This document shows positions 980 through 6,734 of a DNA stretch of 6,734 nucleotides, one piece after another. Numbering within the stretch: position 1 is the stretch's first letter; every line of letters begins with the position of its first letter. This DNA is from a virus: the UHGV virus genome UHGV-0318484; one strand, written 5' to 3'. Position numbers and translations under genes: made by a program. The notes beneath the pieces are model-generated. The model was not told the DNA's origin. It did not search any database and saw nothing but the letters and a program-made list of their open reading frames with translations.

Positions 980-986
980 TTTTCCC

Positions 987-997
987 CAGCTCCACCA
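987..997 (+). other. Possible att core: CAGCTCCACCA (CCAGCTCCACCA from 986), identical to the 3' acceptor end of tmRNA (ssrA)
   Basis: A 12-nt identity to the recalled E. coli ssrA 3' terminus, about 185 bp upstream of a P4-type integrase start. P4-family integrases recombine at the 3' ends of tRNA/tmRNA genes. The sequence upstream of 986 is not ssrA, so this is a core copy only. Confidence 0.3.
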
Positions 998-1030
998 CTT
1001 GCTCTTCCGGATACGTCCGGAGAAATCCTA

Positions 1031-1066
1031 AAAGCCCGCATGGCACAAGCTCTGCGGGCTTTTTTG
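1031..1066 (+). terminator. Rho-independent terminator
   Basis: Stem GCCCGCA (1034-1040) pairs with TGCGGGC (1053-1059), extended by flanking A/T pairs, followed by TTTTTT (1060-1065). Lies downstream of the 692-979 gene. Confidence 0.6.
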
Positions 1067-1110
1067 TGTCTACCATTGTCCGAGGATATCCAGCTAAATC
1101 CAGTGATTAT

Positions 1111-1160
1111 TGGTATACGTTTAGGTATACGGTAGGATGTATACCTAAACGCGTATACCA
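1111..1160. promoter_or_regulatory. Imperfect 20-bp inverted repeat with four GTATAC motifs, overlapping the presumed int promoter; candidate Int arm-type sites or operator
   Basis: TGGTATACGTTTAGGTATAC (1111-1130) and GTATACCTAAACGCGTATACCA (1139-1160) are reverse complements apart from a 2-nt insertion. GTATAC occurs at 1113, 1125, 1139 and 1153. The repeat lies 20-70 bp upstream of the int start. Confidence 0.45.
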
Positions 1161-1181
1161 ATTCATGAAGGAGCGGCCACA

Positions 1182-2393
1182 GTGGCAAGAACGACACGCC
1201 CCCTGACCAACACAGAAGTTCTGCGCGCTAAAGCGTTAGAAAAGGATCTAACGTTACATGATGGCGATGGCCTTTTTCTGCTCGTTAAAACGAACGGTAA
1301 GAAGTTGTGGCGTTTCCGTTATCAACGTCCAGCAACAAAACAGCGGACAATGATGGGGCTTGGTGCTTTCCCCGCCCTTTCACTTGCTGATGCTCGAAGG
1401 TTAAGAGCGGATTACCTTGCTTTGTTGGCTAATGGTATAGACCCACAAGTTCAAGCTGAATTTATCGAAGAACAACAACAGATAGCTCTAGACAGTATTT
1501 TTTCGACTGTTGCGACCAACTGGTTCCAGATAAAAAGCAAAAGCGTTACCCCTGATTACGCTAAAGATATATGGCGCTCACTGGAAAAAGACGTATTCCC
1601 TGCCATCGGGGAGATTCCTGTCCAGCAAATAAAAGCCCGAACACTAGTTGAAGCCCTTGAGCCAATCAAAGCTCGTGGAGCACTCGAGACAGTGCGCCGA
1701 CTTGTACAGCGCATTAACGAGATAATGATTTATGCCGTAAACACTGGTCTGATTGATGCCAATCCAGCATCAGGTGTTGGGATGGCCTTTGAAAAGCCCA
1801 GAAAACAAAACATGCCGACGCTGAGGCCAGAAGAATTACCAAAGCTGATGCGTTCTTTGTTCATGTCAAATCTGTCTGTTCCGACTCGCTGTCTCATTGA
1901 ATGGCAGCTTCTGACTCTAGTGCGTCCTGCTGAAGCTTCCGGTGCTCGATGGGCAGAGATCGATCTCGATGCAAAGCTCTGGATGATTCCAGCCGAACGG
2001 ATGAAGGCCAAACGAGAGCACATAGTTCCTTTATCCACGCAGGCATTAGAAATTCTAGAAGTGATGCAACCTATTAGCGCACATCGTGAGCATGTTTTCC
2101 CAAGCAGAAATGACCCTAAACAACCAATGAATAGCCAGACTGCGAATGCCGCGCTTAAGCGCATTGGTTATGGTGGGAAGCTTGTTGCTCATGGATTACG
2201 TTCTATAGCAAGTACAGCACTAAATGAAGCTGGTTTTAATCCGGACGTAATTGAAGCGGCACTTGCTCACAGTGATAAAAATGAAGTTCGAAGAGCATAC
2301 AATCGTTCAACTTACCTTGAACAACGTATAGACTTGATGAATTGGTGGGGTGAATTTGTGCACAACCGCCACCGCCTCATGCAAGCGATTTAA
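1182..2393 (+). CDS. int: P4-family tyrosine integrase (site-specific recombinase), 403 aa, GTG start
   Basis: AAGGAG (1168-1173) 8 nt before GTG at 1182. The N-terminus (LTLHDGDGLFLLVKTNGKKLWRFRYQRP) matches the P4-type integrase N-terminal DNA-binding domain. The C-terminus carries the HGLRSIAST box and a tyrosine in RRAYNRSTYLEQR, consistent with tyrosine recombinase catalytic residues. Tandem stops TAATAA. Confidence 0.92.
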   Translation: MARTTRPLTNTEVLRAKALEKDLTLHDGDGLFLLVKTNGKKLWRFRYQRPATKQRTMMGLGAFPALSLADARRLRADYLALLANGIDPQVQAEFIEEQQQIALDSIFSTVATNWFQIKSKSVTPDYAKDIWRSLEKDVFPAIGEIPVQQIKARTLVEALEPIKARGALETVRRLVQRINEIMIYAVNTGLIDANPASGVGMAFEKPRKQNMPTLRPEELPKLMRSLFMSNLSVPTRCLIEWQLLTLVRPAEASGARWAEIDLDAKLWMIPAERMKAKREHIVPLSTQALEILEVMQPISAHREHVFPSRNDPKQPMNSQTANAALKRIGYGGKLVAHGLRSIASTALNEAGFNPDVIEAALAHSDKNEVRRAYNRSTYLEQRIDLMNWWGEFVHNRHRLMQAI

Positions 2394-2420
2394 TAAGATT
2401 GCACAGCAAAGGAGTCTTAA

Positions 2421-3779
2421 ATGCCAAATAACTACCATCAATACATCGAAGACGTTAGTGATGATATAAAGACATGTCTTGAAGGAATGGGATGCCAACC
2501 CATACTTTTTGTTGGATCGGGATTAACCAAGAGATATCTTTCTGGCCCAAACTGGGAAGAACTTCTTCAGCAACTTGCTAATGAATGTCCTAACATCGAT
2601 AAAAGATTTGCCTATTATAAACAGAAATACCCCGAGTTGATTGATATCGGCAGTGTATTTTCTGATTCTTATAACGAGTGGGCATGGGGTGATGGAGAGA
2701 AAGAATTTCCAGCAGAGTTATTTGATGCAGGCAATGAGCCAAGTATTTATTTTAAATACAAAGTATCTAGTATTTTCAACTCATTGTTACAAGAAAAAGA
2801 AATCGTAAACAACGGTGAAATTGAACTTCTGAGAAAGATTCACCCTCATTCAATCATCACAACAAATTACGACAAATTACTTGAATCGATATATCCTGAG
2901 TTTACCCCCATTATAGGCCAAAAAATCCTTTACGCTAATCACGGTAGCATTGGTGAAATACTTAAAATACATGGTTGCTGCTCCACTCCTGAAAGCATAA
3001 TAATAAACCGCGATGACTACGATGACTTCATAAAGAAGAAGAAATATTTAAGCGCAAAACTGCTTACTTTCTTTGCTGAACACCCTCTTCTATTTATAGG
3101 TTACAGCGCAGAAGACTCGAACATAAAAAACATACTATCTGATATTGATGAACTACTTTCAGAAAATGGAGATGTCATTCCAAATATATACATTTTAGAA
3201 TGGACGAGCAAACAAAATGAAAGTGAATACCCACGCCGTGAACGGCTGATTCAAGTATCTGCAAACAAAAGCATTAGAATAAAAAGTATAGTAGCAAATG
3301 ACTTCTCTTGGGTATTTTCAGCGTTTGGCGCGAACAGAGCACTTGATAACATAAATCCCAAATTATTGAGGGCACTTTTAGCTCGCACTTACGATCTCGT
3401 CAGAACTGATATACCTCGCAATCCTGTCCAAGTTGATTACCGAGTTTTATCAAGCATTAGCGAGTCAGAAGGTGAATTAGCGAAATTATATGGTATCGCC
3501 ACATCGTCAGATGGTATGGCATTTAATGCCAGTTATCCTTTTACTTTAACCACGCTAGGGCAATCACTTGGTTTCAAAGGCTGGCATGATGCGAACAAAC
3601 TATTAGAAGTAGTTAAAAACATCACGAACGTAGACATCAAGACATTCGATAACAAATACCACTATGCAATAATGAACGGTGATGAGATTCAGTCCCATAG
3701 ATATTCAAACTATCTTCGAGAACTCCTCGAAAAGGTTAGGGATGGAGAGGAGTTTGAGTTAGGAATAAAGGCTCCATAA
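2421..3779 (+). CDS. SIR2-like (sirtuin/DHS-like NAD-binding fold) protein, 452 aa, with an unassigned C-terminal domain of about 200 aa; candidate NAD+-depleting anti-phage effector in the P4 int-cos hotspot
   Basis: AAGGAG (2409-2414) 6 nt before ATG; only 27 nt after the int stop. Motifs typical of defence-associated SIR2 domains (as in ThsA, DSR, SIR2-HerA): PILFVGSGLTKRY (Gly-rich NAD loop, aa 27-39), ITTNYD (Asn at about aa 149), KIHGC (His at about aa 184), LLFIGYSAEDSNI (aa 223-235). Markedly AT-rich compared with neighbours. Terminator follows. Confidence 0.85.
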   Translation: MPNNYHQYIEDVSDDIKTCLEGMGCQPILFVGSGLTKRYLSGPNWEELLQQLANECPNIDKRFAYYKQKYPELIDIGSVFSDSYNEWAWGDGEKEFPAELFDAGNEPSIYFKYKVSSIFNSLLQEKEIVNNGEIELLRKIHPHSIITTNYDKLLESIYPEFTPIIGQKILYANHGSIGEILKIHGCCSTPESIIINRDDYDDFIKKKKYLSAKLLTFFAEHPLLFIGYSAEDSNIKNILSDIDELLSENGDVIPNIYILEWTSKQNESEYPRRERLIQVSANKSIRIKSIVANDFSWVFSAFGANRALDNINPKLLRALLARTYDLVRTDIPRNPVQVDYRVLSSISESEGELAKLYGIATSSDGMAFNASYPFTLTTLGQSLGFKGWHDANKLLEVVKNITNVDIKTFDNKYHYAIMNGDEIQSHRYSNYLRELLEKVRDGEEFELGIKAP

Positions 3780-3807
3780 TTATTCATATAGCCTTACTAC
3801 TTTTTAT

Positions 3808-3830
3808 GGCCGCTTTAATAGCGGCTTTTT
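3808..3830 (+). terminator. Rho-independent terminator downstream of the SIR2-like gene
   Basis: Stem GCCGCT (3809-3814) pairs with AGCGGC (3820-3825), loop TTAAT, followed by TTTTT (3826-3830). Confidence 0.55.
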
Positions 3831-3966
3831 CACAGCATTATTCATGCTTCTAGCACGATATGATGAACCGCAATAATCATAGCTAACAGGATTAATTTAA
3901 AGCATTACTCCTCGACTGAAGCGTGCTGTCATGCGAAAAAAATTTAAACTACCACGTTAGCGCGCA

Positions 3967-3985
3967 GTGCTTTCCCCGCCTCGCC
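3967..3985 (-). other. cos site: 19-nt P2/P4 cohesive-end sequence (GGCGAGGCGGGGAAAGCAC on the minus strand)
   Basis: Plus strand reads GTGCTTTCCCCGCCTCGCC, the exact reverse complement of the recalled P2/P4 cohesive end. Position between the accessory region/int and psu matches P4 genome organisation (left end cos-accessory-int; right end sid-delta-psu-cos). Confidence 0.8.
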
Positions 3986-4087
3986 CGCCCGCTTTGCGGG
4001 GCGGTTTTAATGCAGTTGCACTGACACGCTCAGACCGCGCCGGGAATGGTGCGGTCTGCAGAAAATGAGGCAGGAAAACGCATGCAA

Positions 4088-4149: not shown

Positions 4150-4722
4150 TTACACAGACTGACGTGATGCCAGTTGCGCACTTTTACGCGAAAAAATCAT
4201 GTTCTGCGCAGGGGTGAATTTTTCACGGCTGTCATCCACCGAAGCCGCGTCAGGCCTGAATCCGATGGCCGTTAAAATGTCGCTATCCTGTGCGGAATAA
4301 TTAATTTTTTCACCCTTCGCAAGCCAGGACAGGAGGGCTTCACGCAGGGCATCTGTGGCACGCTGTATGGCACAGTTTCGGGCAATGGCCGTCAGCTCAC
4401 TGTAGCCCATCAGCTCCGGTGCCAGTGCCGCCGCCAGTGCTGTGCCGTGCTGCTGCATAAAATCATTCAGCCGGTCGCGGATGCTGATGTGCTGAACGGC
4501 TTCATGCGAACGAATATAACGACCGGCGGCCTGATTCACCTGCCATTTTCTGACTTCGATAATATTGCGTAATTCGTCCAAGCGACTGACGTTTCTGCCT
4601 TCTCCTGACAGAAGCCGCAGATATTCCTGTTCGGCCGCAGCCAGCTCATTTTTGCGTTGCAGCCATGCTGCTTTGTTATTCTGACAGGTGTCAAAGGCCT
4701 GCTGTAAGGCTGTGCTTTCCAT
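4150..4722 (-). CDS. psu: Psu, polarity suppression protein (P4 capsid decoration protein and Rho antagonist), 190 aa
   Basis: Length and sequence (MESTALQQAFDTCQNNKAAWLQRKNELAAAEQEYLRLL...SRQSV) match recalled P4 Psu; third gene of the sid-delta-psu late operon reading toward cos. Confidence 0.92.
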   Translation of the reverse strand: MESTALQQAFDTCQNNKAAWLQRKNELAAAEQEYLRLLSGEGRNVSRLDELRNIIEVRKWQVNQAAGRYIRSHEAVQHISIRDRLNDFMQQHGTALAAALAPELMGYSELTAIARNCAIQRATDALREALLSWLAKGEKINYSAQDSDILTAIGFRPDAASVDDSREKFTPAQNMIFSRKSAQLASRQSV

Positions 4723-4795: not shown

Positions 4796-5296
4796 TCATT
4801 CCAGACGCAGCGAATATGATTGTGTTTTTAACCGTACTGGCGGCAGTTCCTGTTTTTCATGCAGGCGTTCTGCCAGTTCGTCCGGTGTGACCGGGCGGAC
4901 AATGAAGCGGTTGATGGTCTGAAGCGTTTTAAACACCAGACCACATCCCGGATCCGTGCACACATAAAAACGCTCGGTGACTTCCTGAGACAGACGCCGC
5001 GATGTTCTTGACAGTGCAAGGCCTTTACATCTCCGACAACAATATCCGGTAACAAGCATTCTTTTCGGGCGTTTCATACTACCGGAGGCTGACGTCAGTG
5101 AATCGCGGTATCTCTGTTTGCCTGAAATGTATTCCATTCCTGAATCTTTACAGTCAGAGAAAAAGCTTTCACTCGCTTCAAATGTCGCAGAGCAATAAAT
5201 ATTCCGGCACTGTGCAATCATTATCTTGGTGCCATCGTCCATGAAATGTGCGCGACGGGTGTGAGCAACATGTCCACACGACGGGCAGTAAATCAT
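4796..5296 (-). CDS. delta: Delta, late-gene transcriptional activator (tandem Ogr-like zinc-finger domains), 166 aa
   Basis: Two Ogr-like Cys motifs (CPSCGH...CRNIYC and CCRRC...CTDPGC); length matches P4 Delta. Its start overlaps the sid stop in ATGA (5293-5296). Confidence 0.92.
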   Translation of the reverse strand: MIYCPSCGHVAHTRRAHFMDDGTKIMIAQCRNIYCSATFEASESFFSDCKDSGMEYISGKQRYRDSLTSASGSMKRPKRMLVTGYCCRRCKGLALSRTSRRLSQEVTERFYVCTDPGCGLVFKTLQTINRFIVRPVTPDELAERLHEKQELPPVRLKTQSYSLRLE

Positions 5297-6027
5297 GACA
5301 GCAGTCCTCTGGCCTTAAGCTCTGCTCCCTGCTGGTCTATTTTGTCCTGCCACACCTTGCGCTGTGCCGGTGTGCCTGCCACCTCATAATCCATGTGCGG
5401 GAGTGTTGCCGCTGACAGTCCGGTCAGCCGGAGAACCGGCTCGCCGGTGAGGCTGATTTGCATCTGTTTTATTTTCTGTTCCAGCGATGATTTCACCTGC
5501 TGCATGACAGCCTTTTCCGGCGCGACGTAGCCCTGATGGCCGGTGGTGTTGGCGAGCGGATTTTCCTGTACCAGGATACTCAGATGCATTGCCCGGACAA
5601 GCGCCTCACAGGTTTCATTCAGGGCGTGTTCCAGCTCATGCTCTGCATACAGACTCAGAAGGTGATGATGTGCCTTCCGGTAGGCGGTGGCCGTGCTGTC
5701 ACACGCCCCTTTCAGGCGTTCACGTTCGAAATTCAGCACCACGGCCAGATTGTCATATTCCTGTACCAGCTCCCGGCGTGCCACGCGCTCAATGTGGCGC
5801 TGTTTCAGCTCGTCGCTCAGGACACCACCGGCTGCACGAAAGGCCGTGCGCCAGTCGTCAGCGTCGTTTCCGTCGGCCTGCGCCAGCGCATTTTTTTCCT
5901 GCTCTGCCCGTTCAATGGCCGTGATGGTCTCATCCATCAGGCGGGCGTTCTCAAGATGAGCGGCTCTGGCCTTTTCCAGTTGTGCCAGCGCGGGTTGCAG
6001 ATATTCAGGGATGGTGTTGTCAGACAT
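5293..6027 (-). CDS. sid: Sid, capsid size-determination (external scaffold) protein, 244 aa
   Basis: Sequence MSDNTIPEYLQPALAQLEKARAAHLENARLMDET... matches P4 Sid. Start placed at ATG 6027 (GAGGAG 7 nt upstream) rather than the in-frame GTG at 6045 used by the ORF track. Confidence 0.88.
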   Translation of the reverse strand: MSDNTIPEYLQPALAQLEKARAAHLENARLMDETITAIERAEQEKNALAQADGNDADDWRTAFRAAGGVLSDELKQRHIERVARRELVQEYDNLAVVLNFERERLKGACDSTATAYRKAHHHLLSLYAEHELEHALNETCEALVRAMHLSILVQENPLANTTGHQGYVAPEKAVMQQVKSSLEQKIKQMQISLTGEPVLRLTGLSAATLPHMDYEVAGTPAQRKVWQDKIDQQGAELKARGLLS

Positions 6028-6061
6028 TTTCCGGCTCCTCGTCACTTCAGGTTAAGAAAAT

Positions 6062-6579: not shown

Positions 6580-6734
6580 ATGCAAGCTGTTTTTTCTTCC
6601 CCGTCTCCCTCCCCTGTGACGCCACTGATGCCGCTGCCGGACATCACGCAGGAGCGTTTTTTACGTCTGCCGGAAGTGATGCACCTGTGCGGCCTGTCAC
6701 GTTCGACCATCTATGAACTCATCCGTAAGGGGGA
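6580..6734 (+). CDS. AlpA-family HTH protein (Vis/excisionase-like regulator), 5' partial; runs off the window end
   Basis: GAGG (6569-6572) 7 nt before ATG at 6580. Translation MQAVFSSPSPSPVTPLMPLPDITQERFLRLPEVMHLCGLSRSTIYELIRKG contains the AlpA-type helix-turn-helix signature. In P4 the vis gene occupies this position. Confidence 0.8.
   Translation, partial: MQAVFSSPSPSPVTPLMPLPDITQERFLRLPEVMHLCGLSRSTIYELIRKG

Follow-up and report, generated by a model that had tools for sequence, protein, structure and literature searches.

Organization of the locus

The stretch of DNA analysed here, the window, is the 6,734-nt UHGV virus genome UHGV-0318484. It carries the core genes int, psu, delta and sid together with AlpA-like and epsilon-like open reading frames, all in P4 order. 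Between the integrase gene and psu, adjoining cos, lies an AT-rich block with a gene for a SIR2-like protein. The features of the window are as follows.

360-447: C4 immunity RNA
Ending at about 985: epsilon-like open reading frame
986..997, plus strand: last 12 nt of the ssrA (tmRNA) 3' end, collinear with the annotated ssrA end of the related locus L001 (7593-7604); the attachment-site side and left limit of the int-cargo block
1182..2393, plus strand: int, tyrosine integrase of 403 aa (Pfam Arm-DNA-bind_3, Phage_int_M, Phage_integrase); GC 46.7%, GC3 39.6%
2352..2393, plus strand: variable C-terminal tail of int, 13 codons and the stop, at which homology with other ssrA-type P4-like elements ends
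2394..2420, plus strand: 27-nt spacer with a ribosome-binding site, AGGAG, at 2410-2414, six nt 5' of the ATG
2421..3779, plus strand: cargo gene for a 452-aa SIR2_2-domain protein (Pfam PF13289, PADLOC PDC-S25); GC 0.374
3780-3966: 3' flank of the cargo, 187 nt, non-coding; GC 0.380
3808..3831, plus strand: intrinsic terminator for the cargo gene: GC-rich hairpin of 7 bp, then UUUUU
3832..3959, no strand: AT-rich non-coding spacer of 128 nt, part of the cargo module
3960..4032, no strand: cos region, conserved sequence from GCGCGCA at 3960
3967-3985: 19-nt cos cohesive end, GTGCTTTCCCCGCCTCGCC, the reverse complement of the P4 left end
4150..4722, minus strand: psu, helper-subversion backbone (Pfam Psu, 8e-89); GC 53.1%
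4796..5296, minus strand: delta, Ogr/Delta zinc-finger activator, backbone (Pfam Ogr_Delta, 7e-22); GC 48.7%
5293..6045, minus strand: sid, capsid size determination, backbone (region 97.1% identical to P4; annotated sid in homologous loci); GC 58.0%
6580-6734 plus 1-112: AlpA-like open reading frame

The RNA of the terminator folds at -15.1 kcal/mol (z = -3.4), and the sequence at 3959-4032 also matches the cos of P2-like phages.

The window behaves as a 6.7-kb circle without the alpha primase. No alpha primase-helicase gene was found in its 6,734 nt, and the epsilon stop is joined directly to the 3' end of ssrA at 985/986; in related chromosomal loci, alpha was present wherever the downstream region was retrieved. 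Because alpha is missing and the sequence is circularly permuted, the window may not represent an intact satellite. The 985/986 junction was not found in viral, genome or metagenome contigs scanned for its exact pattern, nor in 5,426 E. coli genomes searched by megablast, and no attR-type direct repeat of the ssrA end of at least 10 nt was seen downstream of alpha in L001. We also considered a contig in a 'Clostridiales' MAG (L036) as the source of the junction, but it has only the backbone in common with the window.

Base composition of the AT-rich block

The GC content of positions 2394-3966 is 0.374 (589/1573), compared with 0.512 (2642/5161) in the rest of the window (chi-square = 90.7, p = 1.6e-21). 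We also segmented the sequence in its native order by an unsupervised recursive likelihood procedure, with 200 shuffles as the control, and obtained three blocks: 986-2387 at 47.1% GC, 2388-3951 at 37.0%, and 3952 via the window end to 985 at 52.9%. The left composition break, 2387/2388, thus comes 6 nt ahead of the last base of the int stop codon, and the right one, 3951/3952, precedes the cos cohesive end by 15 nt. The left break is weaker than the right, with log-likelihood gains of 15.4 and 41.0 against a shuffle maximum of 9.7 (n=200). Chance heterogeneity is ruled out both by the chi-square test and by the comparison with shuffles. A reading made from the sequence alone (the sequence-only reading) had described the SIR2-like gene and its 3' flank as AT-rich, with a break that begins within about 30 bp of the int stop and ends before cos, and these measurements bear out both statements.

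That reading had also proposed that GC and codon usage be computed; the cargo differs from the rest in GC, and in codon usage it does so partly. Compared with psu, delta and sid, the SIR2 gene is enriched in ATA (20/452 codons versus 4/606, p 7e-5) and TTA (14/452 versus 4/606, p 0.003), two of the four codons that had been called frequent, but not in the other two, AAA (p 0.35) and AAT (p 0.53). Its GC3 is 0.336, as opposed to 0.573 in psu, delta and sid and 0.544 in host genes (p 1e-15 versus host). The integrase gene, which had been grouped with the GC-balanced genes, does not belong there: at 46.7% GC overall, its GC3 (0.396) is not significantly different from that of the cargo (p 0.075), and ATA makes up 36% of its Ile codons, versus 6% in eight neighbouring host genes. 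Cargo and int do differ at codon position 1 (p 1e-4) and position 2 (p 0.009).

Slot boundaries

Alignment with related P4-like elements that carry other cargo, also suggested by the sequence-only reading, located the exchange breakpoints at about 2352 and at 3959/3960. In BLAST alignments homology ends at window positions 2350-2365 for five loci (L003, L004, L005, L007 and L008) and at 2490 for L006; it resumes at 3955-3960 in six E. coli ssrA elements. Nine aligned elements have unrelated sequence on the left side of 3960, and conservation sets in with GCGCGCA at that position, 7 nt short of the cohesive end. On the left, the breakpoint falls about 41 nt inside the 3' end of int, after the conserved ...LMNWWG motif that the Int proteins of ssrA-type elements have in common and beyond which they diverge in sequence and length (395-406 aa). 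The slot therefore runs from the last 13 codons of int to a point 7 nt from the cos cohesive end. The right cargo boundary drawn near cos stands, while the left one, drawn at the int stop, has to be moved into int as far as the homology is concerned.

All six E. coli ssrA elements carry unrelated cargo in this slot. The flanks are common to these six, P4, Enterobacter kobei and six other elements, and the slot genes are unrelated in all but E. kobei, whose slot holds SIR2 and one extra gene. Wider sampling by a Psu search of genome contigs gave six loci, so the cross-genus sample is small. Relatives of the block were found in other mobile elements and in other phyla. Since the slot is replaced by unrelated genes and has such relatives elsewhere, its content is cargo that can be exchanged and circulates horizontally, with cos as its right edge; functional constraint on cos would explain why that edge is sharp. 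The slot holds one self-contained cassette, consisting of the ribosome-binding site, the 452-aa SIR2_2 gene, the intrinsic terminator and the 128-nt AT-rich spacer. We considered whether the spacer (3832-3959) might be a relic common to other cargoes and rejected this, because distant-mode BLAST of 5,426 E. coli genomes matched seven SIR2-bearing genomes alone.

The AT-rich block thus very probably represents the variable slot in which a P4-like phage satellite, integrated at ssrA, carries its cargo, that is, the int-to-cos/psu defence hotspot. The slot, the hotspot and the protein are already known: Rousset et al. 2022 described a defence hotspot between psu and int, beside cos (PMC9122126). 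Our additions are the composition tiers described below, the base-level boundaries and the linkage to an int allele. The phrase 'GC content' is absent from that paper (PMC9122126) and likewise from the 2021 and 2026 follow-up papers.

Linkage of the cargo to an int allele

The sequence-only reading had placed int in a conserved satellite backbone, and sequence identities contradict this. Whereas int is 99.8-100% identical in all SIR2-bearing loci, it shows 80-90% DNA identity beside other cargo in E. coli ssrA-type elements; among E. coli elements psu is 98.3-99.5%, delta 98.0-99.6% and sid 98.0-98.9% identical, whatever the cargo. From int to the spacer, 12 SIR2 loci are 99.4-100% identical, except that some have a single mismatch in the 44-nt int tail; compared segment by segment, the backbone of these loci matches the window at 91.7-100%. 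The exact Int protein adjoins SIR2 in 10/10 places, and a second int allele is tied to its own cargo in 14/14 genomes, in a sample of a few dozen loci chosen by similarity. SIR2 is co-inherited with one int allele, and the psu-to-epsilon backbone is a mosaic.

The int-SIR2 pairing is old, being kept in E. kobei and Ewingella. In E. kobei the block 986-3830 shows 88% DNA identity, versus 68-73% for the backbone, and the int-SIR2 homology ends at 3830. Ewingella has kept the pair at 75% nucleotide identity, with a decayed int. In locus L006, whose int is 90% identical, a deletion scar of the window's SIR2 gene lies next to int. In Enterobacter chuandaensis and Photorhabdus, non-SIR2 cargo adjoins an Int protein with 92% identity to that of the window, which indicates that on longer time scales cargo has been exchanged beside this lineage of int. 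What moves between satellite lineages would be int together with its cargo (att to cos), and not SIR2 alone. In published work, the integrase phylogeny is discordant with those of other core genes (PMC8628076), and a survey of 3,085 P4-like elements found defence genes weakly correlated with every core gene (Spearman <= 0.2) and a rapid turnover of defence genes (PMC13586616).

An alternative that we regard as unlikely is a recent insertion of SIR2 by itself between int and cos, in a conserved backbone of which int is part, with the AT-richness as a mark of recency. In its favour are the composition step near the int stop, the 99.6-100% identity of the SIR2 block in the seven E. coli genomes carrying SIR2, and the very fast turnover reported for defence loci in P4-like elements. 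However, int beside other cargo is 10-20% diverged, with no int of at least 99% identity seen there; the int-SIR2 pair persists in Enterobacter and Ewingella; the scar in L006 records a loss of SIR2 beside a related int; and all cargoes, including that of P4, are equally low in GC.

Cargo GC across P4-like elements

Cargo GC is 34.0-35.5% in six E. coli ssrA elements, 35.9% in the gop-beta-cII segment of P4, and 31.4-37.1% in six further elements from Enterobacter, Tatumella, Citrobacter, Kluyvera, Photorhabdus and an E. coli-like contig in a gut MAG. Every P4-like element examined has three GC tiers, with cargo at 31-37%, int at 44-48% and psu-delta-sid at about 51-54%; the alpha primase is at 61% in the two measured, P4 and L001. 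The flanking DNA of the hosts varies from 43 to 55% GC, and the cargo stays at 31-37% regardless. Even in P. aeruginosa, a SIR2 homologue 73% identical to ours has 41.8% GC within surroundings of 61-63%.

Because 13 other P4-like elements, P4 included, all have cargo of 31-37% GC, low GC does not date the acquisition. The sequence-only reading had taken the break as consistent with recent horizontal acquisition; the horizontal part of this holds, but 'recent' cannot be read from composition. The cargo is probably drawn from an AT-rich pool of defence genes circulating among mobile elements, in which case its low GC would be a standing property of that pool and no sign of recent arrival.

H-NS and Rho silence AT-rich foreign DNA in E. 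coli, and mobile elements in general are AT-richer than their hosts. The first of these facts allows a reading that we hold somewhat less probable than the insertion of SIR2 alone: the AT-richness would itself be selected, cargo at about 35% GC being silenced by H-NS/Rho in the lysogen, which would limit NADase toxicity, and released on satellite activation, for example by the anti-Rho protein Psu, described as a Rho inhibitor (PMC11718236). Such selection would suit the constancy of cargo GC across unrelated genes and hosts, the AT-richness of the SIR2 family even in P. aeruginosa, and a promoter scan that detected no sigma-70 consensus from 2150 to the SIR2 ATG, although the same type of scan found no promoter for int either and so has little power. 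The second fact would yield the same pattern without selection for silencing. We consider slightly more doubtful again a combined form, in which the cargo GC of about 35% is a selected property, with H-NS/Rho silencing toxic effectors until Psu is made, and int with its cargo (att to cos) is what passes from genus to genus, joining psu-delta-sid backbones that are adapted locally.

It is very improbable that the low GC is a by-product of a protein rich in F, Y, M, I, N and K and uninformative on origin: these residues do form 34% of the SIR2 protein versus 18-24% of the int, psu, delta and sid products, and GC1 and GC2 are the positions most different from int, but amino-acid composition alone is contradicted by the low GC3 and by the 38% GC of the non-coding 187-nt flank, and the unrelated cargo proteins of the 13 other elements come with the same GC.

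The SIR2 protein

The cargo protein is an exact 452-aa match to WP_001133507. It matches PF13289 (SIR2_2) over residues 144-266 (4e-27, 95.4 bits versus a cut-off of 24.5). Its best family match is PADLOC PDC-S25 (PDLC04968; 2.1e-84), in which residues 12-376 align to positions 10-358 of a 517-position profile, leaving the C-terminal third of the profile unmatched; PDC-S25 is a candidate family and not a validated system. The motifs GSG32, TTNYD147-151 and H184 are conserved, and 26 homologues, with identities down to 52%, all have N149, D151 and H184. The last of these corresponds in alignment to H171 of DSR2, the residue mutated in deposited H171A structures. In its SIR2 part, the structure model has fold matches to DSR2, ThsA and KomC (identity 15-20%; Foldseek probability 1.0 across about 320 residues; sequence E-values 1e-10 to 1e-5); the model is of moderate confidence (pLDDT 75.7), with residues 311-363 poorly modelled.

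These matches predict an NAD+-consuming defence effector, which most likely would act as an infection-triggered NAD+ hydrolase in abortive infection. The C-terminal 150 aa or so, poorly modelled and with no fold identified, may serve as a sensor.

We examined three known systems as possible identities and rejected each. For Thoeris ThsA, PADLOC matches cover only residues 117-251, the SIR2 core, there is no second cargo gene between int and cos, and the Foldseek TM-score is about 0.4 on query length over about 330 aligned columns. DSR1 and DSR2 have about 1,000-1,200 aa, compared with 452 here, and their profiles match weakly and in the SIR2 core only (Dsr1 1e-5, Dsr2 2e-3). SIR2-HerA is ruled out by domain content and by the missing partner genes.

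WP_001133507 is listed as a single-gene 'SIR2_2' locus by Rousset et al. 2022, who cloned a 'SIR2' construct, pFR88, from E. coli M605 (Table S2B; PMC9122126). The first 399 nt and the 399 aa shown for pFR88 are identical to the window from 2300 onward. This cassette appears under 'additional tested systems', outside the seven validated systems (PMC9122126), and its defence role is accordingly predicted and unproven.

Implications for mapping cargo slots

A fall in GC to about 35% that stops 7 nt short of the cos cohesive end reliably marks the cargo slot of P4-like satellites, and it should not serve to date the acquisition. In mapping exchange breakpoints, one should not count the integrase as part of the conserved backbone. 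For the reading of raw sequence, the locus is mostly a positive control, in which the edges of a known hotspot were placed within about 10-40 nt. The negative result of 2022 for the SIR2 cassette may merit revisiting with forced expression, since the pFR88 clone had only 121 nt upstream of the ATG, in which the scan detected no consensus promoter.

Comparison with known systems

The protein of the window has the SIR2 Rossmann core with the N/D/H catalytic residues of DSR2, ThsA and KomC. At 452 aa it differs from them in being without SLOG, a ThsB/TIR partner, HerA, or the large sensor domains of DSR2.

The slot resembles the cos-proximal hotspot of P2-like phages (the old/tin locus), where variable defence cargo likewise abuts the P2/P4 cos. 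That hotspot, however, is located between gpA and gpQ of the helper phage, whereas the slot of the window lies in a satellite. Defence genes have been reported to be almost never exchanged between P2 and P4.

The hotspot of Rousset et al. has the same order of int, cargo, cos and psu and the same conserved flanks, and nothing essential differs in the window. In P4 itself, gop-beta-cII occupies the same cos-int slot, at 35.9% GC versus 46.2% for the P4 int and 53.9% for sid-psu. The P4 slot has three unrelated genes where the window has one, and the P4 integrase is of a different family (37-38% aa identity to the Int of the window) with a leuX-type att. The P4 genes gop-beta-cII are reported to form a working anti-phage system.

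Gene content of the element

Gene calls from an ORF listing and Pfam, together with the other features of the window, are as follows.

1182-2393, plus strand: tyrosine integrase gene, int (Pfam)
2410-2414: AGGAG, upstream of the SIR2 ORF
2421-3779, plus strand: SIR2_2 protein, 452 aa (PF13289, 4e-27)
3808-3831: hairpin-plus-U terminator (-15.1 kcal/mol, z -3.4)
3967-3985: P2/P4 cohesive end, 19 nt, GTGCTTTCCCCGCCTCGCC
4150-4722, minus strand: psu (Pfam)
4796-5296, minus strand: delta (Pfam)
5293-6045, minus strand: ORF at the sid position (region 97% identical to P4)

The cohesive end reads as the reverse complement of the P4 record's left end, P2-like phages also match the window at 3959-4032, and positions 986-997 are the final 12 nt of ssrA. 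The four backbone and integrase genes, the cohesive end and the ssrA end therefore identify the window as a P4-like satellite, of the kind that E. coli carries integrated at ssrA. Rfam also located the P4 immunity RNAs (C4 antisense RNA at 360-447, 76 bits; isrK at 184-261; c4 target a1b1 at 171-223), and an annotated Icd-like ORF contains all three (171-447). An imperfect, GTATAC-rich inverted repeat at 1109-1162, located between ssrA and the start of int, plausibly represents arm-type binding sites for Int.

The window behaves as a circle of 6,734 nt: in every related locus the sequence runs on directly from its last base to its first, and the ends are spanned by an intact AlpA-like ORF of 88 aa (6580-6734 plus 1-112). 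Its one non-collinear join, at 985/986, connects the epsilon stop to the 3' end of ssrA (last 12 nt) through a 5-nt microhomology, CCAGC, and was not found in any collection searched. The 6.7-kb circle is missing orf151, the DUF5375 gene, the alpha primase and attR; it may have arisen by deletion, may exist as a true mini-circle or may be artefactual. Another contig of similar size, URND01000141.1 (6,780 nt, from the 'uncultured Clostridiales' MAG UMGS1151), has a P4 backbone of E. coli type with other cargo, and its Psu shares 99% identity with that of the window; it is probably a mis-binned Enterobacterales contig.

Base composition and codon usage

The SIR2 gene and its 3' flank form an AT-rich block, with 37.4% GC in 2394-3966 versus 51.2% in the remaining window (chi2 90.7, p 1.6e-21). 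A recursive likelihood segmentation, blind to annotation, produced three blocks (986-2387 at 47.1% GC, 2388-3951 at 37.0%, and the remainder at 52.9%), with gains of 15.4 and 41.0 versus a maximum of 9.7 among 200 shuffles. The compositional break is thus confirmed, and the limits of 2394 and 3966 proposed in a sequence-only reading were off by no more than 6 nt (left) and 15 nt (right). Of the AT-rich codons which that reading had named, ATA (p 7e-5) and TTA (p 0.003) are indeed enriched in the cargo relative to psu, delta and sid, but AAA and AAT are not. Its description of int as GC-balanced did not hold: GC3 is 0.396 in int versus 0.336 in the cargo (p 0.075), and ATA accounts for 36% of isoleucine codons in int versus 6% in eight neighbouring host genes. 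The left step, between int and cargo, is due to codon positions 1 and 2 and is weaker than the right step.

The break had been interpreted as recent acquisition into a conserved satellite backbone, which is partly supported. Composition, however, is no sign of recency, as the cargo has 31.4-37.1% GC in all 13 comparison elements, P4 included.

GC content of cargo, int, and psu or psu-sid in the comparison elements
Six E. coli sister elements: cargo 34.0-35.5%; int 44.4-47.2%; psu or psu-sid about 54%
P4 (gop-beta-cII): cargo 35.9%; int 46.2%; psu or psu-sid 53.9%
Six further elements (Enterobacter, Tatumella, Citrobacter, Kluyvera, Photorhabdus and an E. coli-like contig from a gut MAG): cargo 31.4-37.1%; int 44-48%; psu or psu-sid 51-53%

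Host DNA past int is 43 to 55% GC in the loci of the six further elements, and alpha is 61% in both elements measured. In Pseudomonas aeruginosa, a SIR2 homologue 73% identical to the window's has 41.8% GC in surroundings of 61-63%. Low GC is therefore a lasting feature of the slot contents, and of the SIR2 gene family wherever it is found, and carries no timing information. In three P. aeruginosa loci (for example, L031 5001-7157) this homologue adjoins a Pf-like filamentous prophage (Zot, DUF2523); directly downstream is a conserved ORF of 256 aa.

Limits of the variable slot

In six complete E. coli genomes, a sister element occupies ssrA, and its int and psu flank unrelated genes: an AAA ATPase with an HNH protein, a 913-aa restriction endonuclease, and four distinct sets of hypothetical proteins. 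In five of the six, alignment with the window drops out at 2350-2365; in all six it restarts at 3955-3960. Past the shared ...LMNWWG, the Int proteins differ both in sequence and in length (395-406 aa), which places the last 13 codons of int (2352-2390) in the variable zone. On the right, an alignment of nine elements, including P4 and one from Enterobacter, is unrelated left of 3960; conservation begins there with GCGCGCA, 7 nt ahead of the cohesive end.

The cassette inside the slot is complete, comprising AGGAG, ORF, terminator and a 128-nt spacer that turned up only in SIR2-bearing genomes. In Enterobacter kobei, a second, unrelated 298-aa gene lies between the SIR2 terminator and cos (L030 6457-7353), so additions happen on the cos-proximal side of the cassette. 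Two insertion sequences were also seen: in strain MEI4BO-21 an IS5-family ISKpn26 splits SIR2 at a CTAA site (L002 10600-11775; window ~2585), and in another genome an IS21-family element separates SIR2 from a truncated psu (L015 8010-10312).

Proposed exchange of int together with cargo

Twelve loci with SIR2 match the window at 99.4-100% identity through the att-int spacer, int, SIR2 and the 3' spacer, the sole exception being the 44-nt int tail, which has one mismatch in some of them; their psu-to-epsilon backbone is a mosaic, 91.7-100% identical by segment. In elements with other cargo the backbone is equally similar while int is just 80-90% identical; int therefore does not belong to the conserved backbone. 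The exact Int protein adjoins SIR2 in 10 of the 10 places read. A second int allele (that of L006, E. coli Z1323HEC0423; at least 99% identity) behaves similarly: all 14 genomes retain no less than the int-proximal 63% of its own cargo, differing at the cos-proximal end. Enterobacter kobei is 88% identical to the window over 986-3830 versus 68-73% in the backbone.

An Int 92% identical to the window's adjoins non-SIR2 cargo in E. chuandaensis and Photorhabdus, so the cargo beside this int lineage has changed over longer times. In L006 (8422-8595), a 57-aa ORF joins the first 23 and last ~23 SIR2 codons in-frame, beside a 90%-identical int and followed by unrelated cargo; it is a deletion scar of the SIR2 gene. 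P4-like elements reportedly contain few defence pseudogenes. In Ewingella americana (L034/L035, 3761-6364, at ssrA), an intact SIR2 (91% aa identity) lies beside a fragmented int and P4-gene remnants, which looks as if the cargo has been kept during decay of the satellite.

Our reading, from a small sample picked by similarity, is that int and cargo are inherited and swapped between satellite lineages as one att-to-cos block, and that the int/cargo junction is an old join, not a recent one. In a large survey, defence genes correlated only weakly with each of the core genes (PMC13586616).

The SIR2 protein and comparison with known systems

The top family match of the SIR2 protein is the unvalidated PADLOC candidate PDC-S25 (2e-84); ThsA, LmuA and Dsr profiles match more weakly and only in the SIR2 core. 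N149, D151 and H184 are unchanged in 26 homologues (identity down to 52%), and H184 aligns with H171 of DSR2. The AlphaFold model (pLDDT 75.7) matches DSR2, ThsA and KomC at 15-20% identity, with TM-scores of ~0.4 by query length and ~0.6 when normalised to isolated SIR2-domain chains. In the C-terminal ~150 residues the model is partly disordered, and a full-length search identified no fold for them because the SIR2 core dominates it. By analogy with DSR2, ThsA and KomC, the protein is predicted to be an infection-triggered NADase acting by abortive infection. A promoter scan found no sigma-70 consensus between 2150 and the SIR2 ATG, and the int-to-SIR2 gap is 27 nt; read-through transcription from int is therefore possible. 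The same scan found no promoter for int either, so this argument is weak.

The AT-rich feature is already known. In P4-like satellites of E. coli, Rousset et al. 2022 (PMC9122126) describe the psu-int locus adjoining cos as a hotspot where anti-phage systems are found. WP_001133507 occurs at least 21 times in Table S1A of that study, as a 'SIR2_2' locus of a single gene; a locus matching window 2394-3966 at 100% DNA identity is annotated with this protein. Table S2B of the same study contains pFR88, 'SIR2', cloned from E. coli M605; the first 399 nt displayed for it match the window exactly from 2300 onward, and the first 399 aa displayed match the window's SIR2 protein exactly. Table S2B holds 'additional tested systems' and the seven with robust resistance are in Table S2A, so the cassette has no defence phenotype reported there. 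Later work describes very rapid turnover at the hotspot (PMC13586616) and an integrase phylogeny in conflict with the other core genes (PMC8628076).
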